From a virus (taxonomy: Duplodnaviria; Heunggongvirae; Uroviricota; Caudoviricetes), in the IMG/VR virus record IMGVR_UViG_2541047802_000007: a stretch of 64,000 nucleotides of DNA; one strand, 5' to 3'. Shown here piece after piece: positions 1,660 through 49,796 of the stretch. Made by a program: the position numbers and the translations under genes. Under the pieces are notes generated by a model, which saw nothing but the letters and a program-made list of their open reading frames with translations, made no database searches and was not told the DNA's origin. The first letter of the stretch is position 1. Each line of letters begins with the position of its first letter.

Positions 1660-3069
1660 ATGTCTTTTCTTGATATAAAAAAAATGAGTAAAGAGAGGTT
1701 TAATGCTTTTGTTGATTGGACCAGAATGCCAAATACTGAACTTTTAGGCTATGAGTTTGAGTGGTACTGTAGTCCGAGAGAGTTCCTGCTAGGGGCACTA
1801 TTATTGGATCAAATCGATGAAGATTATAGCGGTATTGTTTTAGCAAGAGACTTAAGTGGGAGATATAGATGTATTGACCTATTTACTAGTGTTTCAGAAA
1901 TGAATTCTGCACGAGCAAAACTAAAGAAATTAATGCGGAAGCATACTAAATTAAACGTAAAAGTATTTCCACAAGGTGATGAAACTTATAAAGCAATGGA
2001 TTTATTCACACCTATAGTTACACCAGATAAACTTCATCATCATTTTTCATTATTTGGTAAATATGCGAACTGGTCGCCTGCAACAGGGATAATCAAGGAA
2101 ATGATGAATCATTTTGAGGATGTCGACGGGAATTTTATAGAGCAGTTTCAGACAACAGGTTTTGATGCCCGGCTATGGGAGTTATATCTTTTCGCATATT
2201 TACGAGAGGAACACTTTTGGCTAGATAGGCAGTTTAATGCCCCTGATTATGTGGCACGTAAGTATGGTAATACTATTTGCATTGAAGCTGTAACGGTTAA
2301 TCCAACAGGGAATGATATTAATCAATCATCTGAAATGCTATCTGAACCTAAAAGTAAGGAAGAATTGCTAGAGAAAATAGAGAATTATATGCCGATTAAA
2401 TTTGGAAGTTCTCTCTATTCTAAACTGAAAAAGAAAACTCGATACTGGGATCTAGAACATGTTAAGGGGAATCCTTTAATTTTCGCAATTGCTGATTTTC
2501 ATGAACCAAACTCTATGATTTGGTCCCATAGTGCACTTTGGCAGTATCTTTATGGTATTCGCTATGAGCATGTTAAATCTGAAGATGGATGTTACAGTTT
2601 AGCAACTAAGAAAATTATATCGCATCAATTTGAGAAAAAGGAAATTCCTTCAGGCTTTTTCTTCTTGGATGAGTCTGAAAATATTTCGGCCGTCCTTAGT
2701 TCTAATAGTGGTACTATATCGAAGTTTAATCGGATGGGAAAACTGGCTGGTTTTGGAAGAAGTGACCTTAGATTATTTAGGAGTGGTTACTGCCATGATC
2801 ATGACCCAGAGGCATTATATCCAGCAGCATTTAGTTTTGAAGTGAAAGAAGGCGATATTACAGAAACATGGGCAGAAGGTTTAAATATGTATCATAATCC
2901 TAATGCTAAATATCCTGTAGATCCTGATTTATTTCCTTCAATAGCACATCATTTTCTTGAAAATGGAGAGGTTAAAAGTATAGTGCCTGACTTTCATCCG
3001 TATACATCTATTACCATAAATGTCTTAACTCAAAATAATAAAAAACAAAAAATCAGAGTAGATGAGTAA
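1660..3069 (+). CDS. Hypothetical 469-aa cargo protein, AT-rich, no recognisable family; candidate accessory/defence gene
   Basis: Long ORF with AGGTAG RBS-like sequence upstream; base composition much lower GC than flanking phage genes; located between cos and Q. Confidence 0.75.
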   Translation: MSFLDIKKMSKERFNAFVDWTRMPNTELLGYEFEWYCSPREFLLGALLLDQIDEDYSGIVLARDLSGRYRCIDLFTSVSEMNSARAKLKKLMRKHTKLNVKVFPQGDETYKAMDLFTPIVTPDKLHHHFSLFGKYANWSPATGIIKEMMNHFEDVDGNFIEQFQTTGFDARLWELYLFAYLREEHFWLDRQFNAPDYVARKYGNTICIEAVTVNPTGNDINQSSEMLSEPKSKEELLEKIENYMPIKFGSSLYSKLKKKTRYWDLEHVKGNPLIFAIADFHEPNSMIWSHSALWQYLYGIRYEHVKSEDGCYSLATKKIISHQFEKKEIPSGFFFLDESENISAVLSSNSGTISKFNRMGKLAGFGRSDLRLFRSGYCHDHDPEALYPAAFSFEVKEGDITETWAEGLNMYHNPNAKYPVDPDLFPSIAHHFLENGEVKSIVPDFHPYTSITINVLTQNNKKQKIRVDE

Positions 3070-4154: not shown

Positions 4155-5917
4155 AAAATCTCCACAATATTGCTGGTATTGGCGGATTCGCCCTGCAGCG
4201 GTTCGTTAAACAGTGCGTGCATCGTTGCCCAGGCCAGATCGGCGTGGCTGGCTTCTTCGCTGCGGCTGGCTTCATAGGTCGGGCGGTTGCCACTGGCGGT
4301 GGTGGCGCGGCGGATTGCCATAAAGGACTGCGCTATGTCGGTGTGTCCGGCGTCAAACTCCAGACGGCGGTGGCTGATAATGTCGTAGGCCTTGAGTACC
4401 AGGGCGTTTTTAACGTTGGGGTTGTAGACAAACTCCCGGACGGCAGGAAAAAACGCTTTCACGTTCTCGTAAACCCCGTGACCAACGCCGGTTGAGTCGA
4501 TACCGATATAGGTCACGTTGTACTGTTCGGTCAGTTTTTTGATGGCGTCAGCCTGGGCGCGGAAGTCCATTCCGCGCCACTGGTGACGCTCAAGAATGCG
4601 GAACTTACCGCCCGGCACGGCTGGCGGCGCCACCACCACGCATCCGGCGCTGTCGCCGTTCTGCGTACCTTTCGCCGGGTCATATCCGATCCACACTTCG
4701 CGCCAGCCAAACGGGCGCAGGGCCAGTGCATGAAAGTCGGTCCAGACTTCCCAACTGTCCACCATGCACGCCTGCAGCTCGCTGAGTGGGAACACAGACG
4801 CGAGATCGTCCACGAACTCACACATCAGCAGGTTCTGGTATTCGTCCGGGCTGTACTCCATGCGCAACTGGTCGAGGTCGAACAGGTTACAGCCGCCGCG
4901 CACCGCATCTTCCACAGTGACTATCTGGCGGTACTGCCCGTCTGCGCACAGCAGGCCGGGGGCCAGATTGCTGTGGGACAGGTCGATGTCCACCTTATCG
5001 GCTTTGTTGCGCCCTCGGTTGAACAGCGCACCGGACCAGAACGGATAAGCACTGTGTGTCAGGCTGGATGGCGTGGAAAAATAGGTTTGTCGCCATTTTT
5101 TGTGAATAGCCATACCGGAAGCCACTTTGCGCAGCTCCTGGAATTTCGGTATCCAGAAATATTCATCCAGATACAGGTTGCCGTGGTAACTCTGGGCCGT
5201 GCGGGCATTGGTGCCGAGGAAGTACAGCGTGGCCCCGTTAGGAAGCACCATCGGATCGCCTTTCAGCTCCACCTCCACTTCTTTGGCGAAGTCGATGATG
5301 TACTGCTTAAAGACGTGGGCCTGAGCCTTGCTGGCGGAAAGGAAAATCTGGTTACGCCCGGTTAGCAGGGCGTCAATCAGGGCTTCACGGGCAAAATAGA
5401 AGGTCGCGCCGATCTGGCGTGACTTCAGCAGGTTGCGGATGCGGTTGGTTTTTCCGGCTTCCCACCAGTGGCGCTGGTAGTTGAACATGGAGGAATGGAA
5501 GATTTCTTCCAGCTTCTCAATCTGTTCATCGGTGAAAACGTTCTTTTCCGGCTGACGGCGCGGGCCTTTGTTGCGGTTGGCGACGTTAGGGTTTAAGTCG
5601 GCTTCGTTGCCGCCATTGTTAAACTTGCCGATCCGCGCATGGCGCTCCGACTGGCGCGCCAGCAGGTCAATCTCTTTGAAATCTTTCCCTTCTTTGTGCT
5701 CCTTCATAATGAGCTGGCAGTAGCGTGCGGCGGTGGTGAGCTGCATCTGATCCAGCGGCCCATAGTCACCCCACTTGTCGCGTTTTTTCCAGCTGTGAAC
5801 GGTTGCAACTTTCTCGCCCAGCATTTCAGCAATGCGGGCTACGCGGTATCCCTGAAAGTACAGCAGCATGGCCTGCCGACGGGGATCGAGATCTGCGGGT
5901 GTCAGTGTGGTGTTCAT
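4151..5917 (-). CDS. P: Terminase large (ATPase) subunit (P2 gpP-like)
   Basis: 588-aa product, P2 P-like; overlaps Q start. Confidence 0.9.
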   Translation of the reverse strand: MNTTLTPADLDPRRQAMLLYFQGYRVARIAEMLGEKVATVHSWKKRDKWGDYGPLDQMQLTTAARYCQLIMKEHKEGKDFKEIDLLARQSERHARIGKFNNGGNEADLNPNVANRNKGPRRQPEKNVFTDEQIEKLEEIFHSSMFNYQRHWWEAGKTNRIRNLLKSRQIGATFYFAREALIDALLTGRNQIFLSASKAQAHVFKQYIIDFAKEVEVELKGDPMVLPNGATLYFLGTNARTAQSYHGNLYLDEYFWIPKFQELRKVASGMAIHKKWRQTYFSTPSSLTHSAYPFWSGALFNRGRNKADKVDIDLSHSNLAPGLLCADGQYRQIVTVEDAVRGGCNLFDLDQLRMEYSPDEYQNLLMCEFVDDLASVFPLSELQACMVDSWEVWTDFHALALRPFGWREVWIGYDPAKGTQNGDSAGCVVVAPPAVPGGKFRILERHQWRGMDFRAQADAIKKLTEQYNVTYIGIDSTGVGHGVYENVKAFFPAVREFVYNPNVKNALVLKAYDIISHRRLEFDAGHTDIAQSFMAIRRATTASGNRPTYEASRSEEASHADLAWATMHALFNEPLQGESANTSNIVEIF

Positions 5918-5963
5918 GGCACAAACCTACAGCCTTGAATGAAGGCTTTCCCCGCCTGCGGTT

Positions 5964-5981
5964 TGTGTGGTTGTCGGTACA
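5964..5981. promoter_or_regulatory. TGT-N12-ACA dyad (Ogr/Delta-type late activator site) in divergent P/O promoter region
   Basis: tgtgtggttgtcggtaca in P-O intergenic region. Confidence 0.5.
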
Positions 5982-6059
5982 AATACCGCGCATTGTTTCA
6001 CTGCCCCCATCACCGCAACCATAAGGCTCCAGTAAGTTTTTTCTAACGGAGCACGGCTC

Positions 6060-6893
6060 ATGACAGTGAAAGCAAAGCGTTTTCGCATCGGGGTGGAAGG
6101 TGCCACCACCGACGGACGCGAAATCCAGCGTGAATGGCTGGAACAGATGGCAGCCAGCTACAACCCGGCGGTGTATACCGCGCTGATTAACCTTGAGCAC
6201 ATCAAGTCTTATCTGCCGGACAGCACCTTTAACCGCTACGGCAAGGTGACGGCGCTGTTTGCTGAAGAAATCACGGAAGGTCCGCTGGCAGGCAAGATGG
6301 CGCTGTATGCCGACGTTGAGCCAACGGAGTCCCTGGTGGAACTGGTGAAAAAAGGCCAGAAATTATTCACCTCTATGGAAGTCAGCCCGAAGTTCGCTGA
6401 TACGGGCAAAGCCTATCTGGTCGGCCTGGCTGCCACTGATGACCCTGCCAGTCTGGGTACGGAAATGCTGACATTCAGCGCCAGTGCAGCCCATAACCTG
6501 CTGGCAAACCGCAAGCAGAATCCTGCCAATCTCTTTACCGCTGCAGAGGAAACGGTGATCGAACTGGAAGAAATCCAGGACGACAAACCGTCCCTGTTTG
6601 CCCGCGTCACGGCGCTGTTTACCAAAAAAGAGCAGTCCGATGACGCCCGGTTCTCTGATGTGCATAAGGCCGTGGAGCTGGTCGCCACTGAGCAGCAGAA
6701 CCTGAGCGCACGCACCGAAAAATCCCTGTCTGAGCAGGAAGAACGCCTGTCTGAGCTGGAGACTGCCCTGCAGGCACAGCAAACCGCCTTTAACGAACTG
6801 GTGGACAAGCTGAGTCATGAAGACAGTCGCCAGGACTACCGCCAGCGTGCAACAGGCGGTAACGCCCCCGCTGACACTCTGACCAATTGCTGA
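6060..6893 (+). CDS. O: Capsid scaffolding protein (P2 gpO-like)
   Basis: 277-aa product, synteny. Confidence 0.85.
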   Translation: MTVKAKRFRIGVEGATTDGREIQREWLEQMAASYNPAVYTALINLEHIKSYLPDSTFNRYGKVTALFAEEITEGPLAGKMALYADVEPTESLVELVKKGQKLFTSMEVSPKFADTGKAYLVGLAATDDPASLGTEMLTFSASAAHNLLANRKQNPANLFTAAEETVIELEEIQDDKPSLFARVTALFTKKEQSDDARFSDVHKAVELVATEQQNLSARTEKSLSEQEERLSELETALQAQQTAFNELVDKLSHEDSRQDYRQRATGGNAPADTLTNC

Positions 6894-11034: not shown

Positions 11035-11428
11035 AGCGGTGCCTTATGTCCGCAATAACCCGGACAAACTGCATCTGTTTGTGGATAACGGTTCGCTGGT
11101 TGCCACGGGGGCCAGCTCCATGTCGTGGGAGTACCGTTACACACTGAACGCGGTGATTGAGGATTTCAGCGGCGACCAGAATCTGCTGATGGCCCCGGTT
11201 TTGCTGTGGCTGAGGGATAACCAGCCCGATGCCATCAATAACCCGGCGTTACGGGAAAAGCTATTCACCTTTGAGGTGGATATTCTGCGCAACGATGTCT
11301 GTGATATCAGCCTGAACCTGCAACTGACGGAACGTGTGCTGGTCAGCACTGACGGCAGTGTGTCGAGCGTTGAAGCTATAGCGGAACCTGATGCACCTGA
11401 AGAAATGTGGACGGTGAAATGTGGCTGA
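10997..11428 (+). CDS. R: Tail completion protein (P2 gpR-like); GTG start after AGGAG
   Basis: Similarity to P2 R; synteny. Confidence 0.75.
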   Translation: MNKPQSLRHALNKAVPYVRNNPDKLHLFVDNGSLVATGASSMSWEYRYTLNAVIEDFSGDQNLLMAPVLLWLRDNQPDAINNPALREKLFTFEVDILRNDVCDISLNLQLTERVLVSTDGSVSSVEAIAEPDAPEEMWTVKCG

Positions 11429-11879
11429 ACTGCAGAAGGTGGACGACTGGCTGAGTGCCTTGCTGGCGAATCTGGAACCAGCCTCGAGAAGCCGCATGAT
11501 GCGCCAGCTGGCGCAGGAACTTCGCCGGACACAGCAGCAGAATATCAGGATGCAGCGCAACCCTGACGGCAGCAGCTATGAACCGCGACGGGTAACAGCA
11601 CGCAGTAAAAAAGGCCGTATCAAACGTCAGATGTTTGCAAAGCTGCGCACCACAAAATACCTGAAAACTGCCGCCAGCGCCGACTCTGCCAGCGTGCAGT
11701 TTGAAGGTAAGGTACAGCGCATTGCCCGTGTTCACCATTACGGTCTGCGTGATCGCGTCAGTCGCAAAGGACCGGACGTACGGTATGCAGAGCGGCGTTT
11801 GTTGGGTATTAACAATGATATTGAGAACAACGTTAAGAATGTTTTTTATCAATGGTTAATTAATAACAATAAGCCGTAA
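11421..11879 (+). CDS. S: Tail completion protein (P2 gpS-like); GTG start; C-terminal ~25 codons run into AT-rich cargo DNA
   Basis: Similarity and synteny; 3' end composition shift. Confidence 0.75.
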   Translation: MAELQKVDDWLSALLANLEPASRSRMMRQLAQELRRTQQQNIRMQRNPDGSSYEPRRVTARSKKGRIKRQMFAKLRTTKYLKTAASADSASVQFEGKVQRIARVHHYGLRDRVSRKGPDVRYAERRLLGINNDIENNVKNVFYQWLINNNKP

Positions 11880-11905
11880 AAATTTTAGATTAAAAATAAG
11901 TTATG

Positions 11906-11932
11906 AACGGGTGGCCTAGGAGGCCACCCGTT
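11906..11932. terminator. Bidirectional terminator hairpin (aacgggtggcct-agg-aggccacccgtt) between S and the antisense cargo gene
   Basis: Perfect 12-bp inverted repeat flanked by A/T runs. Confidence 0.6.
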
Positions 11933-11934
11933 AT

Positions 11935-13635
11935 TTATTCAAGGTGATTTGAAAGAGTAATTAATGGCTCAATCGGTTGGAACGCTTTTAAGGATGTTAA
12001 TATGTTTTTAACTTCCTTTGATACGATAGATAACGGGTTGTCTGTTACAGATAAGTAGGTGGTTAAATCTTGACCTGAAACACGGATAACATGTGGTAAT
12101 ATCGCAGTTATAACTGGTGTCCAAAGGTCGATTAAATCATCCAGAGAGTTATTTTTAGATAATGCTGTATCATATTTATATTTTATTTTCTTCTTGTTCA
12201 AAGGTTTATCTGTTAATTCTTCAAGTATTTCTCCGATGACGGATATTAAAAAGAATCGAGACTTTAAATTTTGGAGGAATAATAAGTTATCCTCATCTAC
12301 TTTAATTTTATTCTCTTTTGCACGGATTTGAGATTTTACTTTTTCTATAGCTTTTGAAATAGTGTAAGCACATAAAATATGCTGGGCTTTCGAATCATGA
12401 AAGGCATTGTCATAGGCTGATTTTGTATCGAAAACGTAGTTTTTACCTCTATTGGCGCTAACATAATCCCCATGTAACGCTATCAGCGGTTGAGCAACAG
12501 ACTCAATGCCAAATAAAGAACCAGTATTTTCGAAGCCGCGTTTCAGTGAATATGTATAACCAAGAGTGGAAAATTCTTCTGCCACCTGTTTTTGTTCTGT
12601 GCTGTTAGAGTAGTGATCCCAGGTTGTAATATGATTCTGAGTATTATTATACTGGACTATTTTTTTTACTTTGTCCGCATCATTACATTCAATAACCTTA
12701 CAAAGGACTTTTAGGCCATCTAATTTTTGTATATCTTGAACTGAACCAATAGAACCAGTGGTTTGAGCTCCATTTATGATTGAAACTCCTTCCAACAACC
12801 CTTTTTCTTTGTTGAATTTTGTTGTTAGGATTGATACACCATTGTTAAAGACAAAGAAGTCTTTTGGGGATGTTTCTGCGGTATTCTTAATTGATGAGTT
12901 TATTTTTCTTCTCTTATTTAATCCCATGAACCCCCTATAATTAGCAGAAAATAATTCTGCTCCATAATTTTTGTATAAATAATTTAGCCAAGTGCCGTTT
13001 GCAAAGCCAACATGTGAAGTCCAGCCATCACCTTGTACAGAATTTATAAGTTCGCCATTGAACTTTATATTGTCAGTCACAACAATTTGTTGTGATAGCG
13101 CAATATACAATTTTTCAAGACTATTAACACCAAGTTCTCTGTAAGTTACCTCAATTTCTTTGTCTGCAAATCTACCTGCTAGATAGTCACGACAAGTTTC
13201 AAGCTCAGTTTTAACCTGCTCAGATTCGGCACAATTATGGATATATAATAATTCAACAGCTTCAATTTCGTTATCATCAATTAATTTTCTAACCTCAGAA
13301 ATTTTTGCTCTTAATTTTGCATTTGGAGACTCTCCTGAGCCTGCCATAATCCACGCTAAAGCAGTGTTTAAGTCAGAAGCTTTATTTGCAGGCGCAACTA
13401 TTTTAAGTGCTTGCTGATTGCAGTAGTAACCCTGAGCAATAAATAACGTTGAATTAATTACGGTAATGAAGTCTATTTTCTTATCGTTTCCACCATCAGT
13501 AAGTCCATCAGATGCTAGCTTATCAAAATCGGATTCATCTAAGTAAAGACCTAATGACCATAAAAGATGTGCGTTACTAGTCCCGTACTTTTCTAACAGG
13601 GAAGTTTTATTTTGCAGTTGTCTTAAGTGTTCCAT
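11935..13635 (-). CDS. 566-aa cargo protein, AT-rich; tentatively AIPR/abortive-infection-like; candidate anti-phage defence gene
   Basis: Long antisense ORF between tail genes S and V; low GC; motifs LTDGGNDKKIDF and FVFNNGVSILT recalled as AIPR-like (unverified). Confidence 0.7.
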   Translation of the reverse strand: MEHLRQLQNKTSLLEKYGTSNAHLLWSLGLYLDESDFDKLASDGLTDGGNDKKIDFITVINSTLFIAQGYYCNQQALKIVAPANKASDLNTALAWIMAGSGESPNAKLRAKISEVRKLIDDNEIEAVELLYIHNCAESEQVKTELETCRDYLAGRFADKEIEVTYRELGVNSLEKLYIALSQQIVVTDNIKFNGELINSVQGDGWTSHVGFANGTWLNYLYKNYGAELFSANYRGFMGLNKRRKINSSIKNTAETSPKDFFVFNNGVSILTTKFNKEKGLLEGVSIINGAQTTGSIGSVQDIQKLDGLKVLCKVIECNDADKVKKIVQYNNTQNHITTWDHYSNSTEQKQVAEEFSTLGYTYSLKRGFENTGSLFGIESVAQPLIALHGDYVSANRGKNYVFDTKSAYDNAFHDSKAQHILCAYTISKAIEKVKSQIRAKENKIKVDEDNLLFLQNLKSRFFLISVIGEILEELTDKPLNKKKIKYKYDTALSKNNSLDDLIDLWTPVITAILPHVIRVSGQDLTTYLSVTDNPLSIVSKEVKNILTSLKAFQPIEPLITLSNHLE

Positions 13636-13709
13636 TTACCAAGCTTCTTTTTTGTTAATGAGATAACTCTCAATAATTTATAGATAGTAGTCGTTTTTTG
13701 CCAGTTGTT

Positions 13710-13727
13710 TGTGACAGCCGTGATACA
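13710..13727. promoter_or_regulatory. TGT-N12-ACA dyad (late activator site) upstream of V
   Basis: tgtgacagccgtgataca about 45 bp upstream of V start. Confidence 0.5.
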
Positions 13728-13773
13728 ACTATCAAAGCTACTTCTCAATTTTGAGATATAGCAGTCTATTTTC

Positions 13774-14352
13774 ATGAACACACAACTAACCGAAATCATG
13801 CGCCTTATCACCAACCTGATCCGCACTGGGGTAGTCACCGAAGTGGACCGGGAAAACTGGCTTTGTCGGGTGAAAACAGGCGACTTAGAAACCAACTGGA
13901 TCAGCTGGCTGACCCTGCGTGCCGGGAATGCCCGGACATGGTGGCGACCATCGGAAGGTGAGCAGGTGGTGCTGCTGAGTCTGGGCGGCAATCTGGAGAC
14001 CGCCTTTGCGCTGCCCGCTGTCTATTCGAATCAGTTCGCACCACCGTCGACGTCGGCGGACGCCTGCGTGACAGAACATCCTGACGGTGGCTGGTTTGAA
14101 TACGAACCCGCCACCGGGCGCTGGTATGTCAGGGGCATCAAATCCATGGTTATTGAGGCTGCCGACAATATCACCCTGAAAACCAGTGAGTTTGTGCTGG
14201 AGGCTGACCGCACGCGTATTAATAGTGAAGTAGTGATCAATGGCGGCGTTACCCAGGGCGGCGGTGCGATGAGTTCTAACGGGATCGTGGTTGATGCGCA
14301 TCAGCATACTGGCGTCCTGAAAGGCGGCGATACAACCGGAGGCCCGGTATGA
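13774..14352 (+). CDS. V: Baseplate spike/assembly protein (P2 gpV-like)
   Basis: 192-aa product, synteny. Confidence 0.85.
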   Translation: MNTQLTEIMRLITNLIRTGVVTEVDRENWLCRVKTGDLETNWISWLTLRAGNARTWWRPSEGEQVVLLSLGGNLETAFALPAVYSNQFAPPSTSADACVTEHPDGGWFEYEPATGRWYVRGIKSMVIEAADNITLKTSEFVLEADRTRINSEVVINGGVTQGGGAMSSNGIVVDAHQHTGVLKGGDTTGGPV

Positions 14353-18466: not shown

Positions 18467-18484
18467 TGTGCCATTTTCCATACA
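18467..18484. promoter_or_regulatory. TGT-N12-ACA dyad (late activator site) upstream of FI
   Basis: tgtgccattttccataca in G-FI intergenic region. Confidence 0.5.
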
Positions 18485-25552: not shown

Positions 25553-25645
25553 TGAAGCGGCGCACGAAAAGCGCGAAAGCGTTTCAAATAAAATACGAAA
25601 ACTCAAAACTTTCGCGCTTCAATTGAGACAGTTGTTTTATGTATG
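25553..25645. repeat. Mu right-end attR region (transposase binding sites)
   Basis: Terminal sequence resembles recalled Mu right end. Confidence 0.7.
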
Positions 25646-26092
25646 TCAGTTTCGTTTACATTTATATGTCTTAAAAATATTCACATCATCTCGGATATAA
25701 AGATTTTTTCCTGATTTATCAACGATAAAATACTTTATAACCGCAGGATTTCTAGTCAAAGCATAGAGATAATCAGTCCCTTTAATCTTTTCATCCTTGT
25801 CTTGTTCGTCAATTTGGCCTGTTTCTATCTGAGTGTATAGTTCACCTGTATCAAGGTCTGTCCATGACCCCATATCAACGCCCATATGCATACGAATACC
25901 GTGGCAGGTCCAAAAACCAGAGGCAGGGGCTTTATTTGCAACACTCTTATCTGGATCTATCCCGGCGGACCTTAAGACTGCATCAGCAGCCACTTCAGGA
26001 TCAAAATCTTTTTCTTGAGCGTGATTGACTGAGGAGGCGGTTAGTACGAATAGGCTGATGATGGTACTGATTAGCAATTTTGATTTTTTCAT
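25646..26092 (-). CDS. 148-aa predicted secreted/periplasmic protein (signal peptide), AT-rich; accessory gene next to Mu right end
   Basis: N-terminal MKKSKLLISTIISLFVLTASSVNHA signal-like sequence; low GC; lies between mom and attR. Confidence 0.6.
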   Translation of the reverse strand: MKKSKLLISTIISLFVLTASSVNHAQEKDFDPEVAADAVLRSAGIDPDKSVANKAPASGFWTCHGIRMHMGVDMGSWTDLDTGELYTQIETGQIDEQDKDEKIKGTDYLYALTRNPAVIKYFIVDKSGKNLYIRDDVNIFKTYKCKRN

Positions 26093-26136
26093 CTAATATG
26101 CTCCGTATGTGAGTAAATACATAAATTTATATGATA

Positions 26137-26874
26137 CTAATCAGAACTGCTTTTTGGGTATGGCTGAATCCTGAATAGTTTGGTATTTAGCCGCTTTCTT
26201 GCTCGCTTGTTCAGGAACCTGATGTAGCGATACTGATTAAATTTGTGCACCACGGCACGCTCTTTATTAGCCCGTAAATACATGCCTCGTTGTCCACCGC
26301 GCTTAATTGCGTTCATCGTTATCTCGTGATACCACTCACCATCCAGCTCGTAGAACGTGCTTTCATGGCTGCCAATAAAATCAAAATTTGACGCCTGATA
26401 CACAACGCCAGCACGTCCGCAGCGTTCGTCTGCAAAAGACTGAACCCACTCCACTGACGGATACAGTAACCTTATGGTTTTCAGTGCATAACTGATGGCC
26501 CGTGATTCAGAGTTGCGGGGCATGTCGTCGTGTAGCCACATGCGGTTCAACTCCATATAGCCCCGGTTATCCGTTTCAAGCACGACACGACGACCAGAGT
26601 TGGGGTTAAGGGCATATCCCCACTGGAGAACGCCAACCAGATCGCGTCCGCTGAATACTCCCAAGTGGAGGTAAGAGTTATTCACAAAACGGCGGGAATA
26701 GTGCTTTGTCTGAATAATTGTGCGGGCCAGCCAGCAGGATATGGTTTCAACGCGCAGCTCCTTTGAACCATAGCCAACAATCTGGCTTTCATACTCAATA
26801 ACGCACGGTTTCGTCAGAATGCGTGATTTCTTCTCTTTTCCCACAATGTTTCTCCGTGGGATGCTCGCAGGCAT
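26137..26874 (-). CDS. mom: Mom DNA-modification protein (true start probably internal to the listed ORF)
   Basis: Position directly downstream of and overlapping com; size class. Confidence 0.7.
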
Positions 26875-26983
26875 TCAGCATTATGATATGACGTTTGCAA
26901 CGCGGACACCTGATTTCAATGTGATCAAAGGAATCCGCCTTAAATAACAGTTTGTTGCAGTTTTTACAGCGAATTGATTTCAT
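26795..26983 (-). CDS. com: Com, zinc-finger translational activator of mom
   Basis: 62-aa product matching recalled Mu Com ([16 protein letters not shown]...). Confidence 0.85.
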
Positions 26984-27041
26984 CTCACCTCCTTTGCATC
27001 AATTCGCCACTATCTTAAAAAACATCGTGGGTTGAGTGTGG

Positions 27042-27659
27042 TTATTGGGGCATAATCGATCTGTATTGCCGATCGATTTGATTGATTCGATCGTCGTTTT
27101 CTATATGCGTTCGTTTCGCGGGGTGTTTTTTATACAGAGTTGACAGAGCCACATCATAGATCAATGCAACCTGCTTGCGGGGGATTCCTTGTACTAATAA
27201 ACGCCCGGCCTGCTCCCATTCCGCTTTGGTTAGTTTAGGTGGTCGCCCACCAATACGGCCTTTATTTCTGGCGGCAGCAAGTCCAGCCATCGTTCGCTCG
27301 ATGATTAGTTCTCGTTCCATTTCAGCCAGGGCACCCATAACGTGGAAGAAAAAACGCCCCATTGGAGAAGATGTGTCTATGCTGTCGGTAAGACTGCGAA
27401 AATTAATCCCTCGCTCCCGTAGTTCCCCGACGAGGGAAATCAGATGTTTCATGCTTCGCCCGAGGCGATCCAGTTTCCAGACAACCAGTGTGTCACCTTT
27501 TTGAAGGCGCTTTAACGCGCGTTTTAATCCAGGTCTGTCTGTCCTTGTTCCGCTTAATTTATCTTCAAATATTTGTTCACATCCTGCACAAACAAGAGCG
27601 TTTCGTTGCAGGTCTGTATTCTGGTCATTTGTTGATACCCTTACATAGCCAATCAGCAC
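27042..27659 (-). CDS. gin: Gin serine DNA invertase
   Basis: Product begins MLIGYVRVSTNDQ..., serine recombinase/resolvase family, adjacent to G segment. Confidence 0.9.
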   Translation of the reverse strand: MLIGYVRVSTNDQNTDLQRNALVCAGCEQIFEDKLSGTRTDRPGLKRALKRLQKGDTLVVWKLDRLGRSMKHLISLVGELRERGINFRSLTDSIDTSSPMGRFFFHVMGALAEMERELIIERTMAGLAAARNKGRIGGRPPKLTKAEWEQAGRLLVQGIPRKQVALIYDVALSTLYKKHPAKRTHIENDDRINQIDRQYRSIMPQ

Positions 27660-27703
27660 TCTGGATCTCCCGTTTAAAAGCGCAAATCACGCCATGCAGG
27701 CCG

Positions 27704-27733
27704 GAAACAACCATTATCTAAAACCTCGGTTTA
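27704..27733. repeat. gix recombination site (right inverted repeat of G)
   Basis: ttatctaaaacctcggtttacaggaaacgg is the reverse complement of 30705..30734. Confidence 0.7.
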
Positions 27734-27763
27734 CAGGAAACGGTAAACAGGGCTGGTAACGCC

Positions 27764-28600
27764 GTGCAAAAAAATGGCGATACCTTGTCCGGTGGGCTTA
27801 CTTTTGAAAATGACTCAATCCTTGCCTGGATTCGAAATACTGACTGGGCGAAGATTGGATTTAAAAATGATGCCGATGGTGACACTGATTCATACATGTG
27901 GTTTGAAACAGGCGACAACGGCAATGAATATTTCAAATGGAGAAGCCGCCAGAGCACCACAACAAAAGACCTGATGACGCTGAAATGGGATGCACTAAAT
28001 ATTCTGGTAAATGCCGTCATTAATGGCAGTCTTGGAGTTGGTACGACGAATGCGTTAGGTGGTAGCTCTATTGTTCTTGGTGATAATGACACCGGATTTA
28101 AACAGAATGGAGACGGCATTCTGGATGTTTATGCTAATAGTCAGCGTGTATTCCGCTTTCAGAATGGAGTGGCTATTGCTTTTAAAAATATTCAGGCTGG
28201 GGATGGTAAAAAATTCACGCTATCCAGCTCCAACAACTCCACGAAGAACGTAGGGTTTAATTTATGGGGCGCTTCGTCAAGGCCAACTGTTGCAGAGCTT
28301 GGCGATGATTCTGGCTGGCATTTCTATAGTCAGCGAAATACAGATAACTCAGTAATATTTGCTGTTAACGGTCAGATACAACCCAGCAACTGGGGGAATT
28401 TTGATTCCCGCTATGTGAAAGATGTTCGCCTAGGTACGCGTGTTGTTCAATTGATGGCGCGTGGTGGTCGTTATGAAAAAGCCGGACACGCAATTACCGG
28501 ATTAAGAATCATTGGTGAAGTAGATGGCGATGATGAAGCCATCTTCAGACCAATACAAAAATACATCAATGGCACATGGTATAACGTCGCACAGGTGTAA
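27764..28600 (+). CDS. S': S' variable part of alternative tail fibre (expressed only after G inversion)
   Basis: Tail-fibre-like ORF in opposite orientation inside G segment. Confidence 0.65.
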   Translation: MQKNGDTLSGGLTFENDSILAWIRNTDWAKIGFKNDADGDTDSYMWFETGDNGNEYFKWRSRQSTTTKDLMTLKWDALNILVNAVINGSLGVGTTNALGGSSIVLGDNDTGFKQNGDGILDVYANSQRVFRFQNGVAIAFKNIQAGDGKKFTLSSSNNSTKNVGFNLWGASSRPTVAELGDDSGWHFYSQRNTDNSVIFAVNGQIQPSNWGNFDSRYVKDVRLGTRVVQLMARGGRYEKAGHAITGLRIIGEVDGDDEAIFRPIQKYINGTWYNVAQV

Positions 28601-28603
28601 ATT

Positions 28604-29137
28604 ATGCAGCATTTAAAAAATATTAAGTCAGGAAATCCAAAAACAAAAGAGCAATATCAGCTAACAAAGAATTTTGATGTTATCTGGTTATATACAGAAG
28701 ACGGTAAAAACTGGTATGAGGAAGTAAATAACTTTCAGGAAGACACCATAAAGATTGTTTACGACGAAAATAATATTATTGTTGCCATAACCAAAGATGC
28801 CTCCACACTTAACCCTGAAGGTTATAGCGTCGTTGAGATTCCTGATATTACCGCCAACCGGCGTGCTGACGACTCAGGTAAATGGATGTTTAAAGATGGC
28901 GCAGTCATTAAACGTGTATATACCGAAGAAGAGTTGCGCCTACAGACGGAAAACCAGAAAAAAATATTATTACAGCAGGCCAGAGAAAAAACGCAGTTCT
29001 GGCAAACACAGCTTGCGCTGGGAATTATCAGCGATTCAGACAGGCAAAGACTCATTAACTGGATGTTATACATGCAGCAGGTTGATGCCACAGATACCTC
29101 TGTTCTTCCTGTAACATTCCCGGAACAACCAGAATGA
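28604..29137 (+). CDS. U': U' alternative tail fibre assembly protein
   Basis: Paralog of U (shared N-terminus MxHLKNIKxGNPKT) on opposite strand. Confidence 0.75.
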
Positions 29138-29165
29138 GACAAGGCCCGCTATCGGGCCTTAATTT

Positions 29166-29693
29166 TTATTCAGGCTTTTGTGGCCATTCAGGCTTTGCCG
29201 TATCTACACGGCTGACCAGAACGCTGTAGCGTTCCCATGATTCCAGCCGTGTGCGTTCCTTGTCTGTTGCCATATTCAGCCTTACAGCACGTTCCAGCGG
29301 TTGAATCACAGACTCCGCTTCAGAAAGCAAAGCGGCTTTTTGTAACTCAGCCTGCTGCTGCAGTTCCTGTTCTGTATATTCCCGTTTTACCACTTTACCA
29401 TTCAGAAACATCCAGTTTCCGTAATTATCTGCGCGACGATTTGCCGTAATATCGGATACTTCAACAACACTTAAACCTTCCGGGTTAATAGTTGAAACAT
29501 CTTTGCTTACGGTAACAATCACATTATTTTTATCGTATGCAATTTTTATAGTATCTGGTTGAAAGTTTTTTTGTTCTTCGTACCAGTTTTTACCATCTTC
29601 AGTATAAAGCCAGACAACTCCAGCTTTTTTGGTTAACTGGTATTGTTCTGGTGTTTTTGGGTTTCCTGCTTTAATGTTTTTTAAATGCATCAT
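29166..29693 (-). CDS. U: Tail fibre assembly protein U
   Basis: 175-aa product downstream of S. Confidence 0.8.
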
Positions 29694-29694
29694 G

Positions 29695-31230
29695 TCAAAT
29701 ACTCACAACGTTATAATATGTCCCACCAATCAACTTCTGAATAGGTCTTCTGGTTAATGTATCAATAAACTCATCGGTGTTGCTGTTTCCGGCTGCGGTC
29801 AGAACATATCCAGAAGTATCCCAATAACCAGGGCCTCGCCATGCTGATATTGATTCTGCGCTACCAAGTCGAATGTCTCTTACATATGTGCTATTGAGAT
29901 AATCAGCTAAATTTGAACCCCAACACCCGCCAAATATATTTCCATCGGTGTTATAACGGATGCCACCCGCAACAAGAGCACCCGGTGAAATAAAAGATTT
30001 ATCGTTCGGGTTAAACTGCCATAAAGCATCATTACCGCCATCGCCACGCATATGAATACATGGAACCGGAAATCCATACTGTTCTGTCAGCAAATAACCA
30101 AAGCTGACCGCGCCGGGATAGCCCTGTCCATTGCGAATGGACAAGCCCTTAACTATCGGCACGTAATGACCACCAGGAGTGGGATTCCAGGCAAACTGCG
30201 TCTGAACAAAAGGCGCGGTGGCATTATTCAACTGGTCTGCAAATGCGCCACTTCCATCAGGAATTATTCCCTGATGAATATATGCAACCCGCTTATAAAA
30301 ATCAGCAGATGCGGGTTGAAGCCCGAATGCCAGTTGTCCATTTGAATAGAATAAAAGGACACCGTCGCCGCCCTGTTTAATACCAGTGTCGTTATCTCCG
30401 AGAGTAATGGAATTACCGCCCAGTGCGTTATCTGTACCAAGCGCCAGCCCACCATCAATTTTGGCCCCGTGGCTGACCGATATAGCTCCTGTTCTCAGAT
30501 TTATAGCGAATGGCCTTAATGGGCCGATATCACCGTTTTCGCCTTGTCCTTCAGCCGTAGGGATGAAATGAAGGTACTCTTCTGAACGACGGAAAATAAG
30601 ACCGAAGGCATCATTAAAAATTCGCAGCGCATTCATCGTGCCAATTTTCAGTTCTCCGGTCATTTTATCGCCGGAACGCTGAACGGCGTTACCAGCCTTG
30701 TTTACCGTTTCCTGTAAACCGAGGTTTTGGATAAACAGCGGCTTATTGGGAATATCTGCTCCGTTCCGGTCTTTTGCCAGACGGGCATTGGCATTATCCA
30801 TCGCAATTTTCACCGCTTTTGCAGTGGCTGCCAGCGTTTCACTGGGGCTGTCAGTGGCACTGGTTAGCTGAACGAGTCCTTTTTTGTTCAGGCTGGCATC
30901 ATAGATATCCAGATTTTCACGTGCTGTACGCTGTGCTGATGCCCCGGCAGTTTTAATTTCGCTGAGGTTATTTTTTATCAGCAGCGCGTTATTGCTCATA
31001 ATGGCTTTAATGGACAGTGCAAGCTGGTTTAATTTTGTTTTATCCGGTTGAATACCGGCTTCTTCCAGCGTGTTTAATAACTCCGCCTGCACAATATTAA
31101 ACCAGTCCATGCCGGGCCATGTGATAACATTATTCCCGTCACCTTCTGAAAACCAGCGAACGATAGCACTACGCTGGGCGGATACGGGCGGCATGACGGT
31201 TACGCCGCTGTCGTTATCAATATAAAACAT
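29695..31230 (-). CDS. S: Tail fibre protein S (constant part outside G fused to variable part inside G)
   Basis: 511-aa product spanning gix site at about 30705-30734. Confidence 0.8.
30705..30734. repeat. gix recombination site (left inverted repeat of G) inside S
   Basis: ccgtttcctgtaaaccgaggttttggataa. Confidence 0.7.
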
Positions 31231-31772
31231 TAGTTATCTCCGTCATGGTAAACAAATTTATAAATCTGATGTGCGGGTTTATATTTCTCCAGTAAACATT
31301 CCAGCGCACCCGATTCATAAACACGTAACGGCGTCAGAACATTATCCAGCACCGTTGCGTTGCGATAATTTTTAATACCGTAAATATTGACCTGCGTAAC
31401 CCACTGGCCTTCTGTGGAATCCGTCAGCCTAACGGTAAAACCGTACTGTGCAGCCAGCCATTCATAAAAGCGCCGACTCAGATTGCCGGTCATACGCATT
31501 TTATTCGCGGCAGCCCGCTGGCGTTCGGACAAGGTGCCGTTTTCGCTGGTACAGTCCGGCAACCCCAGAAATGATTCCCACTCCCCCAGATACCAGCGGG
31601 ATGTGGACGGGAAACGCTCCCGCAGCATTTGCCGCGCATCATCCGCCGCAGTGGCAATCACGTCGCTGATGGCCTGCGCCAGCGCAGATAATTTGCTGTC
31701 GGGGCTTTTATTCCAGGCAAGCCCTGACGGCAGTAATTGCAGAAAGGCCGTCTGATAGGGTGTTACAGCCAT
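31230..31772 (-). CDS. Baseplate protein (Mu gp48-like)
   Basis: Size and synteny. Confidence 0.7.
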   Translation of the reverse strand: MAVTPYQTAFLQLLPSGLAWNKSPDSKLSALAQAISDVIATAADDARQMLRERFPSTSRWYLGEWESFLGLPDCTSENGTLSERQRAAANKMRMTGNLSRRFYEWLAAQYGFTVRLTDSTEGQWVTQVNIYGIKNYRNATVLDNVLTPLRVYESGALECLLEKYKPAHQIYKFVYHDGDN

Positions 31773-32845
31773 TCAATTGTCCCCGGTGTTAACAGTTCCG
31801 TATTCTCCGAACGCTGGATCTCTGTCGGGAAACGCACTTCAAAATCATCCAGACCGGTAACACCTGCCACCGCACGGATAATACGGGAGGGGGCAAGTGC
31901 GCCGCCCGGCGTCACCTCATTAAAAAACATGGTATTAATGGCGTGGGTAATAGCCTGTTTCAGTTCGGCTGTCTTCGGTGATATATAAATCCGTGGATTT
32001 ACCGGCTTTGCCTTTGGCGCAAATACAGTGACATTTACACCGTCAGGCTGTCCGACAATCAGACCGGTGATCGGGTCAGTATGACCGGCGATATAATCCG
32101 CCACGCGTTCCACGTCTGCCGGTTGTGGAAAAATATTGCTCCGGTTATCCATAACAAACGTCACCCCGACTGTGCCACCGCCTTTCCATGTCGGAAAACA
32201 CCAGGCACGGGTAACGCCGCTGACTTCACGTGCCCAGCGAACGTAATCAAACTGATTACCGCCGAACGGAGGGTACTGGACACGATATTCCAGCCGTGAC
32301 AGCAGTTCCGCTGCACTCTCAATATCAGCTCCACCGGAAAACCCTTTTACAGTGATGGCATCGGAAACAACACAGGCAACCGGGGTGATCAACGTTAAAA
32401 GGGTATTCTCACCGGTATTTCCTGCTTCACCGGCAGCCAGTGCGGTAACGGTAATTTCCGTCGTTCCTGCACGGTCAATCACAATGGCATCAGCCAGGCT
32501 GTAAACCACACCATCAGCACGCTGCCAGCGTGTACCGGCAGGAATGGTGGTCGCTGCCGATGTGGTGACAGTCAGCGGGCCGCTGGCGGCTGTCGCCTGT
32601 TTGCGGCGCACGCCCCAGAACCGGCAGTGCTCCAGCAACTCATCTTCATCTGCTGTCGACGGGATAATCTGCCGTCCAACCCATGAAATATGCTCGTGAC
32701 AACCGGCAGCAAGCCCTGCCTGGGCGTAAGCAATGGCACTCAGCGTTTTTTCACGGGCCTGAGGCCAGCTACCCGGCAGGCGCTGTTCAATATTCTGTTC
32801 TGTACGGGCAATCAGCGATGATAATGTCGGTGGTGAATAAGCCAT
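31763..32845 (-). CDS. Baseplate protein (Mu gp47-like, J-like)
   Basis: Size and synteny. Confidence 0.75.
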   Translation of the reverse strand: MAYSPPTLSSLIARTEQNIEQRLPGSWPQAREKTLSAIAYAQAGLAAGCHEHISWVGRQIIPSTADEDELLEHCRFWGVRRKQATAASGPLTVTTSAATTIPAGTRWQRADGVVYSLADAIVIDRAGTTEITVTALAAGEAGNTGENTLLTLITPVACVVSDAITVKGFSGGADIESAAELLSRLEYRVQYPPFGGNQFDYVRWAREVSGVTRAWCFPTWKGGGTVGVTFVMDNRSNIFPQPADVERVADYIAGHTDPITGLIVGQPDGVNVTVFAPKAKPVNPRIYISPKTAELKQAITHAINTMFFNEVTPGGALAPSRIIRAVAGVTGLDDFEVRFPTEIQRSENTELLTPGTIEWL

Positions 32846-33283
32846 TTAAACCCCGTTAAATGCTGCTTTAAACTCATAAGGAATAACGGAACCATCCGGT
32901 AATGTCAGTGCAATGTAGAGGTATAACCAGCCCTGATGTAACTGTTCCGCTCTGACGTTAACCGCACTTACCCGGCCTGCTGTTTTCAGCCATTCCAGCG
33001 CCTCTTCGGCATACCCTCTGGCACGTTCCAGCGTATCCTGTGTGGCTTTTTCACGTGATAACAGCCACAACCGCGAACCAATGGGGCGGTCGCGGTAACT
33101 GTCACCCCACCATCCACGGCGATCATCTGAACCATCCGGCAGCGTGTCAGAATCCAGCGCGCGCCGGTCGGTAAACAGGGAGATTGTCACATCGGTTGTC
33201 AGGCTGTCGTCGGTCAGCATATCAATGCCATCCTGTGCAATATCGCCGCGTCCGTTCGTCCAGATAATGGCTAAATCGGTCAT
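32846..33283 (-). CDS. Baseplate protein (Mu gp46-like)
   Basis: Size and synteny. Confidence 0.7.
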   Translation of the reverse strand: MTDLAIIWTNGRGDIAQDGIDMLTDDSLTTDVTISLFTDRRALDSDTLPDGSDDRRGWWGDSYRDRPIGSRLWLLSREKATQDTLERARGYAEEALEWLKTAGRVSAVNVRAEQLHQGWLYLYIALTLPDGSVIPYEFKAAFNGV

Positions 33284-33873
33284 TGCATTGGCCCCGTGGT
33301 TCCGCCGCTGTCGCCACGGTGGATATGCTTATCCGTCGATTTGCCATTGATGATGGCATCCGGGGCAGTAATATTGCTGTCGAACTGGCTTTTACCTTTA
33401 ACGCCCAGACCTTTCTGGATCTCAACGTCGCCGGTAAACGTGGTTCTGGGTGTATCAACGGTCATACTTTCATCGGCGTAAATCTCAACCGTTTTACAGG
33501 TAATGATGCAGCGCCCGTCCTTTGTCAGCCTGATACGATGTCCCTCGTGGTGGTAAATGCCTGCATCACCCGGTTCAAGATTTGTCGGGCGGTAGCGGCG
33601 GTCTTCCACCACAACGGCAATCCCCTGATCACGTTGTGCACCCACACAGGCAATCAGCGCCTCTGCGCCCGGCAGAGGAACGCTGAAATGCCCGTAATTT
33701 TGCAGGCGCTCCACTTCATCAGATTCCTCATCATCCAGCAGACCGACCTGCAGGTTCTGAACCTTTCGCCCGTCGTTAATCACGTTAACAACGGCACGCG
33801 CAAGCATCAGACGCACACGACGCATCAGCGGTGCCAGCAGGCGGTTCATGGCGGAATCATTTACTCTTTCCAC
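33280..33873 (-). CDS. Baseplate spike protein (Mu gp45-like)
   Basis: Size and synteny. Confidence 0.7.
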   Translation of the reverse strand: MERVNDSAMNRLLAPLMRRVRLMLARAVVNVINDGRKVQNLQVGLLDDEESDEVERLQNYGHFSVPLPGAEALIACVGAQRDQGIAVVVEDRRYRPTNLEPGDAGIYHHEGHRIRLTKDGRCIITCKTVEIYADESMTVDTPRTTFTGDVEIQKGLGVKGKSQFDSNITAPDAIINGKSTDKHIHRGDSGGTTGPMQ

Positions 33874-35000
33874 GGCGGCGTTTTCTCCGGGTGTCTGCGA
33901 TAATAATCTTCAACCAGCGCATCAATACCGCCGTTACTGTCGCCGCCTTTCCTGTTTTTACGGTCGCTTTCAACCGGCACCAGAAAGCCTTCGCGTGGTG
34001 CAAGGCTGACGCGGGTTTTCAGCCCGTCCTGGTCATTCAGTATCAGGGTGACTTTGCTGACCAGTAATTCTGTGGTTTTGATGGCATATATCGAGGCATC
34101 AATAGTGACCAGCAGGTTCGGCATCCAGAGTTGCCCGTCCTTGCGTGTCCATCCGTCAATTTCTGCCTCAAAGGTGATGGATTTTGCCAGTCTGCGGCGT
34201 TGCTCACGCAGGGCGCGGGCCTGTGCATCCTTCGCCGTAATTTTGCTGTCGGCAATGATGATCATCGGTCTGTAACGGGTCACATCACTGTCAGTGGCGG
34301 TCCCTTTCCGGGAGACGATACTTTTCGCATCAATATCATCACCCTCAGCACCATTTGCGCGGGCATACCCCTTGACGGTGTATTCGCTGAACCGGTCGCG
34401 GAAGTCTTCCTCAAAATCCAGTGTCAGCAGATTTTCTCCGAGAACCAGCTCATCAGTAGCTGTGCTGGCAGCCCGGCTGAATACCAGCTCTCCGGCGGCA
34501 TTGCTGGTCATCAGTACACCGCGTGCGCGGGAGGCACGCACCAGCGCCTCATAAACGGTTTCTGAATGGTCCAGCGTGAAGCCGGGAAAAGCTGCCGAAC
34601 TTTCCTTATCGGAAAGCTCCCAGCGAACGGTAACGCCATAAGGAGCGCACAGGTCACGCGCAATCTGTTCCAGTGTGCGGTTTTTCCACTGCCCGCCACT
34701 GTAAACGGCTGCACAGTCAATCAGGTCAGCCGTTTTGTCGCGCCCGGCAATAATGATTTTCATGCTGTCAGCGATCATCTGGCGTCGCCGCGAATCGATG
34801 TAACCGGTGCAGACAATCTGCCCGTCGATTTCCAGCGTGAACGCTTTCCCCGGTGCCAGCCCGGATAAATCTGTACCCGGTGGCACATTCACCCCCAGCT
34901 CAAAATATCCGGCTACGGATTCAATGGAGCGGGTGACAGAGACTGACGTCCAGCCGGTAAACAGCCTGCCATCCGCTCGCAGTGTGACGGTATTACTCAT
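33861..35000 (-). CDS. Baseplate hub protein (Mu P / gp44-like)
   Basis: 379-aa product, synteny. Confidence 0.8.
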
Positions 35001-36480: not shown

Positions 36481-36484
36481 GGTT

Positions 36485-38557: not shown

Positions 38558-38701
38558 AGAGATTTCCTGATTTAACGGTGATATTGAGAGAGGGTTTTAG
38601 CCTGCTGGCAGTGCCGGAAAAAGCGGGACAGCGGAAGGGATAAGGCCCATTCCGGGCCACTTTTCAGAATAACGCCAATCGCTGTCGCCGCTTTCTCAAT
38701 A

Positions 38702-39136
38702 TCATTCCGGCACCGCAGCCACTCGCCCCCGTTCTTGTGTCAGCGATGCCGCCACAGCCATGTCGTACATTTCTGTGGCCAGCGACAGACGCTGGAAGTC
38801 ATCGACAGACAGCTTACGAATCAGCGCCATCGACAACGGGCCTTTGATGCAGCCCACGCTGGCAATCTGTCGGCGCAGCATTTCCAGTCCCATCCGGGAC
38901 GGGGAACTGACCAGCACCGGACCTTCCTTGCTCATTACAAGCTTTTCAGCAGCCGCCTGTGCATCAATCATATCGCCTGCGGTCAGTTCACGCAGTGTCA
39001 CGTCATACTGCATTTCAGTCTCGTCACCGGTGCCGAACGGCAGGCCGTCTTTCAGTTTCAGCACTCCGGACTGAATTTCTGCCACAATGCTGTCATGCAG
39101 TTCCTGTGCTTCAGGACCTAAATTCATTTCGTCCAT
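38702..39136 (-). CDS. Tail assembly chaperone (Mu gp41-like)
   Basis: Position between tube and tape measure genes. Confidence 0.6.
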   Translation of the reverse strand: MDEMNLGPEAQELHDSIVAEIQSGVLKLKDGLPFGTGDETEMQYDVTLRELTAGDMIDAQAAAEKLVMSKEGPVLVSSPSRMGLEMLRRQIASVGCIKGPLSMALIRKLSVDDFQRLSLATEMYDMAVAASLTQERGRVAAVPE

Positions 39137-39145
39137 TGTTTCCCC

Positions 39146-39502: not shown

Positions 39503-39511
39503 AAATGCTCC

Positions 39512-42566: not shown

Positions 42567-42632
42567 AACACATGCTCCTCCTTTTCCTTTAAATCAGGTT
42601 AAAAGGCGGTCTGAACCGCCTTTTAATGACGG

Positions 42633-49791: not shown

Positions 49792-49796
49792 CCCTC

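Follow-up and report, generated by a model that had tools for sequence, protein, structure and literature searches.

Foreign genes are held in three classical regions of the P2 genome, namely TO, Z/fun and orf30 (PMC3091744), and a further example of horizontal transfer in the orf30 region has been described (PMC6823313). In the P2 record, gene S is followed by a terminator, the nonessential Orf30 in antisense orientation, an activator-binding site and gene V, and a transcription start is annotated at the first base of V. The better-known hotspot studies focused on other P2 hotspots, and a preprint of 2026 reported AbiU in both P2 and P4 elements together with defence hotspots within the P2 late genes (10.64898/2026.02.27.708500). 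With regard to AbiU, a phenotype has been reported for the lactococcal protein only, which reduced plaquing and delayed phage transcription, and the reduction in EOP was only 10- to 100-fold (PMC13064643). The AIPR protein pFR77, encoded by a single gene of a P4 element, was assayed under its native promoter against eight coliphages; the validated systems do not include it, and it was listed only under the "additional tested systems" (PMC9122126, Table S2B).

Here we analysed a gene of this family in a window of 64,000 nucleotides, by which we mean the whole stretch of DNA under study. Positions 1-25554 of the window are 99.996% identical to the chromosome of E. coli S88 and carry a P2-like prophage adjoining ssrA. 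From its layout and flanks, the slot that holds the gene is the known classical orf30 variable region of a P2-like prophage (Peduoviridae, Wadgaonvirus-like). Neither the gene nor its family name is new, and the same is true of the variable slot and of AbiU/AIPR in P2/P4 elements; the finding of AIPR as such adds little, and standard pipelines already name the gene.

The AIPR/AbiU-family gene and its slot

The gene lies at 11935..13635 on the minus strand, starts with ATG and encodes 566 aa. It is flanked by two tail genes on the plus strand, S (11421..11879; tail completion / virion morphogenesis, 152 aa), which matches Pfam Phage_tail_S with 139.9 bits over aa 3-146, and V (13774..14352; baseplate spike, 192 aa), which matches Pfam Phage_base_V with 65.7 bits plus Apex. 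A stop-free run of 566 codons has a chance of ~3e-20 given the local base composition, and no second plausible gene was found within 11880-13773. The GC content drops to 0.30-0.38 over 11750-13850 in comparison with 0.54-0.60 (~57%) in the flanks, and the AIPR gene shows a GC of 0.343 and a GC3 of 0.27, while the GC3 of V is 0.64. The original prediction of an antisense, AT-rich ORF of 566 aa amid the late tail operon is thus borne out by the ORF coordinates and the GC profile, and the deviant base composition (0.34 vs 0.57) is that expected of cargo in the orf30 slot.

It is evident from the profile matches that the 566-aa protein belongs to the AIPR/AbiU family. Pfam AIPR (PF10592) covers aa 229-498 with 90.9 bits (E 1.6e-25; profile positions 1-289 of 308), for which the gathering score is 25 bits. 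PADLOC AbiU (PDLC02357) covers aa 115-511 with 84.9 bits (E 1.7e-24; profile positions 138-513 of 537) and leaves the N-terminal 114 aa uncovered, and PHROG 1841 ("Abi alpha-like abortive infection mechanism") spans the whole protein with 489 bits. The identical protein of E. coli S88, WP_000400690.1, is already named "AIPR family protein" in RefSeq. Thus the tentative assignment to an AIPR- or Abi-like protein agrees with Pfam AIPR, which is above its gathering score, with PADLOC AbiU, with PHROG 1841 and with the RefSeq name, while no tail or structural family matched in Pfam or PHROG. More than 1000 homologues were found; the best 120 of them, which come from Proteobacteria, Clostridia, Cyanobacteria and Bacteroidota, are nearly all ~570 aa long with the same architecture, and an alignment of 50 homologues of distant phyla has more than 70 invariant residues.

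Two other identities were rejected. MzaE gave 50.3 bits with the NCBIfam equivalog against a cutoff of 1050, and the neighbours here are S and V with no mzaA-D. The HEPN assignment, which was made for some AIPR proteins (PMC3506569), does not apply to the clade of the present protein (the S88-type clade), in which the R-x(4-6)-H motif and four-helix fold were not found.

The flanks of this prophage lineage occur in 1053 of the 5426 complete E. coli genomes, and the AIPR cassette in 4 of them and in none of the sequenced phage records. In Escherichia phage 500465-1 (Peduoviridae, Wadgaonvirus), which is the closest phage, V comes 68 bp after S with no cargo, and in empty-site relatives the flanks are 95-97% identical. 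An evenly spread sample of S-V sites in related E. coli prophages contained 28 empty and 27 occupied ones. Since about half of the sampled sites are empty, the gene is not a conserved part of the tail operon; the idea of a variable moron site between S and V is supported by the relatives with an empty site or other cargo, and by the Orf30 layout of P2. Other cargo at S-V includes AAA+DUF4435 (PARIS-like), TIR, GmrSD, an Sll1717 P-loop ATPase, DUF6216 (also in BL21), DUF2971 and hypothetical proteins.

Salmonella and a metagenomic P2-like contig carry alleles of 84-85% protein identity, which sit in this slot in the orientation seen here. Lone chromosomal homologues were found in Pantoea (80% identity) and Aeromonas (58%), and Klebsiella plasmids carry copies at 76% identity. 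In the P2-like, Pantoea and Aeromonas contexts it is a lone gene without a conserved partner. All alleles examined have 34-35% GC in hosts of 53-63% GC, and the maintenance of this low GC in such hosts indicates repeated successful transfer. The intact AIPR/AbiU gene is best described as a putative single-gene anti-phage system, the family name of which RefSeq already carries.

The same prophage has a full-length homologue of PD-T7-1 at 1660..3069, in the classical TO hotspot. PD-T7-1 was validated by Vassallo et al., and the S88 homologue was tested by Rousset et al. as "Putative HEPN" without validation (PMC9122126).

Cassette replacement and transcription signals between S and V

Junction alignments with empty-site, other-cargo and same-cargo relatives located the boundaries of the exchange. 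Homology to the empty-site phage 500465-1 stops at ~11826 inside S, after RRLLG, and full homology with the empty-site relatives returns at the ATG of V. The S codons from ~136 onward (11827-11879, the last ~18 codons) form a recoded, AT-rich end, which moves together with the cargo; the last 72 nt of S have 24% GC and the remainder 57%. This end still gives the S C-terminus (RRLLGINNDIE...QWL vs RRLLGVNDDVE...QWL), and in the other cargo-bearing variants an AT-rich S end likewise keeps the S C-terminal pattern. Because homology is lost within S and regained at the V ATG, what took place is recombination within S and at the start of V that exchanged a cassette, and not an insertion into the intergenic spacer. 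The original prediction was right in that the end of S is built from AT-rich DNA, but a simple insertion does not hold, as the resident sequence was replaced from ~11827 to 13773.

The exchanged cassette (11827..13773), delimited by the junction alignments, the GC trough and blastn, comprises the recoded 3' end of S, a hairpin, the AIPR gene in antisense orientation and the divergent promoter region, to which the V late promoter belongs. The AIPR cassette of L009 aligns from 11929 through V by blastn. A hairpin follows S in each AIPR cassette, at the same place and with a different sequence, and the two full AIPR cassettes share a V core promoter in an AT-rich form. By these alignments, the cassette brings its own hairpin plus its own copy of the V promoter, and the locus shows cleanly how a cassette was exchanged in the P2 hotspot that has been studied least.

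The hairpin is located at 11906..11932, between the convergent S and AIPR genes, and is GC-rich: 8 of the 12 base pairs of its stem are G-C, and the loop has 3 nt. Folding of the plus strand gives a dG of -23.8 kcal/mol (z -4.9) and folding of the minus strand one of -22.6 kcal/mol (z -6.2), and none of 200 shuffles was as stable. A terminator scan calls it on the plus strand only, where a T-run follows, which indicates that it serves the S operon as a terminator no less than the AIPR gene, and the equivalent hairpin is annotated as the O-operon terminator in the P2 record. Thus it is an intrinsic terminator of the S (O) operon and probably ends the AIPR transcript too. The hairpin postulated for the cargo does exist, but it is not the exclusive property of the cargo, being shared with, or mainly serving, the S operon.

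At 13710..13727 on the plus strand lies TGTGACAGCCGTGATACA, which fits the TGT-N12-ACA dyad of an Ogr/Delta-type activator site, in this case for the V late promoter. The pattern alone occurs 12 times in the window, where 16.8 occurrences would be expected, and is thus not enriched; the support for the site comes from its conserved position, not from the frequency of the pattern. It precedes the V ATG by ~47 nt in each of the aligned relatives and corresponds to the annotated activator-binding site of P2, 42-69 nt before V. The late promoter dyad of V is thus preserved beside the cargo, as had been proposed, and its spacing from the V ATG is constant among all relatives. The divergent intergenic region (13636..13773) contains the V late promoter on the plus strand and, presumably, the AIPR gene's own promoter on the minus strand. 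A strict sigma-70 scan gave no minus-strand promoter for the AIPR gene, and a relaxed scan gave weak candidates only, the best of which scored 9/12 (CTGGCA-N16-TATAAA at 13704..13677, minus strand).

Downstream in the window, a Mu/D108-like prophage (25555..62167) is inserted in the ogr gene of the P2-like prophage. Its Mu ends are intact, it is accompanied by a 5-bp target duplication (GCCAG), and S88 lacks it; its junction with ogr was found in none of the complete E. coli genomes. This insertion inactivates the late activator expected at the V-promoter dyad. It also follows from the lysogeny of a Mu-like phage in an AIPR carrier that the AIPR gene does not exclude every phage. The window represents a natural experiment, in which a Mu-like phage lysogenised an AIPR carrier and knocked out its late activator.

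Domains, invariant residues and selection

The protein can be divided into three regions. The N-terminal domain (aa 1-200; 13036..13635, minus strand) is predicted to take a PD-(D/E)xK (Mrr/FokI-like) fold, while Pfam has no family for the N-terminal 204 aa. The predicted structure contains the alpha-beta-beta-beta-alpha-beta core of Mrr/FokI-type PD-(D/E)xK nucleases, and the top structural matches include AF1548, MspJI and AspBHI, which are modification-dependent or Mrr-type enzymes. In the 50-sequence alignment, D47, D51, D55, Q68, K85, H133, N134 and E137 are invariant in this domain. Both motifs quoted in the original prediction are present and conserved in the family, at aa 45-56 (LTDGGNDKKIDF) and aa 260-270 (FVFNNGVSILT), and the former lies outside the Pfam AIPR domain, inside the N-terminal nuclease-fold domain.

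The catalytic D...(D/E/Q)-x-K motif was not found in this domain. The nuclease motif reads D55-x12-Q68-G-Y70, with Tyr at the canonical Lys position of D...QxK; this Tyr70 is at least 90% conserved in the S88-type clade and aligns with the Lys of Q-S-K in pFR77 (DGADDNGIDAI...IIVQSKW in pFR77 vs DGGNDKKIDF...FIAQGYY in the S88-type clade). The invariant K85, which is on the following helix, might replace the missing catalytic Lys. Given Tyr for Lys, nuclease catalysis by the N-terminal domain is plausible but not assured. The unusual active-site variant of this clade is directly testable, in a family without an established mechanism.

The Pfam AIPR core (aa 229-498; 12142..12951, minus strand) is the most conserved part of the protein and shares 30% identity with the pFR77 core (E 1e-14). 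Its invariant motifs are NYRGF (232-236), NNG (264-266), INGAQT (287-292) and NNTQN (330-334), and the patterns NNG-I/V-T/S, I/V-NGAQT and NN-T/R-QN, invariant in the 50-sequence alignment, align with pFR77. The C-terminal region (aa 441-566; 11938..12315, minus strand), which is helical in the model with high pLDDT, is the most variable part, with a mean identity of 0.32 vs 0.63 in the AIPR core in the same alignment, and is a candidate specificity or sensor region. A Foldseek search of PDB with the full model gave no match at E <= 0.001, a profile search of PDB sequences with the 566-aa protein gave nothing meaningful, and among solved structures there was no convincing relative of the AIPR core that would explain sensing. 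A ParB/Srx-like (DndB/DGQHR-type) domain was considered, by structural similarity, as a candidate for the AIPR core.

Against same-site alleles, pN/pS was 0.08-0.18, with pN of 0.09-0.13 and saturated synonymous sites, and it peaked in the C-terminal region at 0.16-0.53. These values show that purifying selection on the AIPR gene is strong in all three regions, the nuclease-fold domain included.

Proposed action, rival explanations and comparison with known systems

Taking these results together, we consider it probable that the locus is a horizontally exchanged orf30-slot cassette whose lone AIPR/AbiU-type protein acts against phages as a single-gene system. In the lysogen, where the late operons are silent, a promoter of its own would drive the AIPR gene in antisense to them, and transcription of the gene would stop at the hairpin, which is the terminator of the S operon as well. 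The cassette's own Ogr-dependent V promoter would let the expression of the tail genes survive the swap. When a competing phage infects, a trigger may be sensed by the variable C-terminal and AIPR regions, which would set free the N-terminal nuclease-fold effector to act on nucleic acid. Phage gene expression would then be blocked, in a manner like the delayed phage transcription by lactococcal AbiU, and the infected cell would possibly be lost, to the benefit of the prophage and the host population. The non-validation of pFR77, the small EOP reduction by lactococcal AbiU, the Tyr-for-Lys change, the absence of a consensus promoter in our scans, the Mu lysogeny in the carrier and the lack of a structural homologue of the AIPR core that would explain sensing are counted against this anti-phage reading.

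The main rival is a direct restriction-like action, in which the protein would be a Type IV/Mrr-like nuclease whose AIPR and C-terminal regions recognise modified or foreign DNA, with the host spared. The structural matches to AF1548, MspJI and AspBHI fit this idea, AIPR genes have been described as common in restriction-modification operons (PMC2292703; PMC3506569), and GmrSD, a Type IV enzyme, occupies the S-V slot of another E. coli prophage. However, the AIPR gene stands alone here with no methylase or RM partner, the canonical catalytic Lys is missing, and the sole phenotype in the family, that of AbiU, is a delay of phage transcription, with an Abi classification. We regard a restriction-like action as unlikely, though the roles considered below are much less likely.

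Alternatively, the gene may at present have no activity against phages in E. coli and be a passenger, with a non-catalytic fold or with another role for the prophage or host, that is retained chiefly because the slot tolerates cargo. The failure of the P4 AIPR pFR77 to be validated, the K-to-Y change at the catalytic position, the rarity of the cassette (4/5426 complete E. coli genomes) and the Mu lysogeny in the carrier cell would agree with it. On the other hand, a passenger hardly accounts for strong purifying selection in all three regions, for the full-length architecture and invariant residues retained across phyla, for the 34-35% GC maintained in hosts of 53-63% GC, which implies repeated successful transfer, or for an AIPR gene still intact though the surrounding prophage lost ogr, and this role seems quite improbable. 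Finally, a function in the tail region, whether structural, in assembly or through antisense control of S/V expression, might be suspected from the position inside the late tail-gene region and from the overlap of the upstream region with the V late promoter, but it is effectively refuted by the empty-site relatives and scarcely credible, as the gene is absent from close relatives sequenced as phages and from about half of the related prophages, is replaced by unrelated cargo in others, corresponds to an Orf30 annotated as nonessential in P2 and matches no tail or structural family.

Beyond the probable anti-phage action, we may speculate, with low confidence in the whole of it, that the S88-type proteins form a distinct AIPR clade in which Tyr for Lys, under strong purifying selection, serves a non-canonical chemistry or the sensing of nucleic acid instead of its cleavage, and that the S-V slot is a third "plug-and-play" defence hotspot with self-contained cassettes, each having its own recoded S end, terminator and Ogr-dependent V promoter.

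Compared with known proteins, MzaE of the MZA system has a weak similarity to the AIPR core (aa 213-349), and the present protein is not a member of it. The Mrr/FokI-type PD-(D/E)xK nucleases (AF1548, the FokI cleavage domain, MspJI, HamA and Upx) resemble the N-terminal domain in predicted fold with no detectable sequence similarity, and differ at the catalytic Lys position, where the S88-type clade has an invariant Tyr. Pfam AIPR and PHROG 1841 include the S88 protein, above the Pfam gathering threshold, end to end in PHROG and under the same name in RefSeq, but they are annotation families without an established mechanism, and the Pfam domain covers only aa 229-498.

Lactococcal AbiU (AbiUi/AbiU1) is similar in the HMM match over aa 115-511, in length and in the sufficiency of a single gene, and has a predicted N-terminal FokI-like nuclease fold in common (PMC13064643). 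The sequences were compared through the HMM, which leaves the first 114 residues uncovered, the lactococcal sequence itself having not been found in a search of plasmids; the two also differ in host and in carrier, a plasmid vs a prophage slot. The AIPR protein of pFR77, from E. coli E1167 (Rousset et al., 2022), is likewise encoded by a single gene in a hotspot of a P2/P4-type element. It shares the core, at the 30% identity (E 1e-14) given above, with the motifs NNG, NGAQT and NN(R/T)QN, and the N-terminal DGxxDxxID...Q motif is in register, although the N-terminal domains are otherwise unalignable by BLAST. It differs in its canonical Q-S-K, in contrast to Q-G-Y of the S88-type clade, and in its element and slot. 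As for the locus, orf30 of P2 likewise lies antisense at this position, with the S terminator on one side and the Ogr site of the V promoter on the other, but Orf30 is a different, shorter protein, whereas the cargo here is an AIPR gene.

A transposable prophage in the late-activator gene

In the P2-like prophage, the late-activator gene ogr is interrupted by a Mu/D108-like transposable prophage of 36.6 kb (window 25555..62167), which shows 97-99% identity to D108, Mu and vB_YpM_3. The insert is bounded by inverted Mu ends and by a 5-bp target-site duplication, GCCAG (junctions at 25550-25554 and 62168-62172), and the two fragments of ogr remain at about 25466-25554 and 62168-62308. E. coli S88 does not carry this prophage, and the Mu/ogr junction was found in none of the 5426 complete E. 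coli genomes. The arrangement shows that the AIPR/AbiU-family cargo gene and the PD-T7-1 gene were already present in the cell when Mu lysogeny took place.

Because the insertion falls within the zinc finger of Ogr and divides it near codon 29, the P2-like prophage should have lost activation of its own late promoters. Besides the V late promoter, the window contains three more TGT-N12-ACA dyads placed as expected for other P2 late promoters, namely two for the divergently oriented P and O promoters, which lie between the genes for terminase and scaffold (5906..5923 and 5964..5981), and one for the F promoter, which precedes the tail sheath gene (18467..18484). The replication endonuclease gene of the S88 prophage (P2 gene A homologue; 4433..6873 of the S88 region L001, mostly upstream of window position 1) is labelled as a frameshifted pseudogene in RefSeq, which suggests that a replication defect of the prophage predates the Mu insertion that the window shows.

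A second cargo gene in the TO hotspot

The classical P2 TO hotspot, with a DinI-like gene on one side and the portal gene on the other, holds a forward-strand gene for a 469-aa protein (1660..3069), which matched PD-T7-1 over its full length in PADLOC (652 bits) and had no match in Pfam. Thus, the prophage carries two defence-type cargo genes including AIPR. The TO-hotspot gene, exactly as it occurs in S88, was cloned as pFR103 ('Putative HEPN') and placed among the systems tested but not validated (Rousset et al. 2022, PMC9122126).

AIPR relatives and other cargo of the S-V slot

Pantoea ananatis has an AIPR gene of 80% identity (L006 / L007 6001..7701), which is followed by two small conserved ORFs and flanked by mug (UDG) and P2-like prophage genes. 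The prophage end next to it is ogr/D/U in one strain and gene A/CI in another, so this gene is located beside a P2-like integration site and not in the S-V slot. A 31% identical AIPR gene of Klebsiella phage ST512-KPC3phi13.2 (L004 5001..6704) occupies the TO hotspot of Klebsiella P2-like phages. In tblastn, its homology already begins about 250 nt before the annotated start of the CDS, and therefore the protein as annotated is missing the N-terminal region with the DGxxDxxID motif, which may reflect a misplaced start codon or truncation.

The S-V slot of Klebsiella phage Kp4865-2 contains a forward-strand gene for a 503-aa P-loop protein (L003 2474..3985) with no confident match in PADLOC. 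Among the sampled related E. coli prophages, the slot is empty in about half, and the cargo found in it includes PARIS-like AAA+DUF4435, a TIR protein, GmrSD, a Sll1717-family P-loop ATPase, DUF2971, many hypotheticals and DUF6216, the last with BL21 strains among its carriers.
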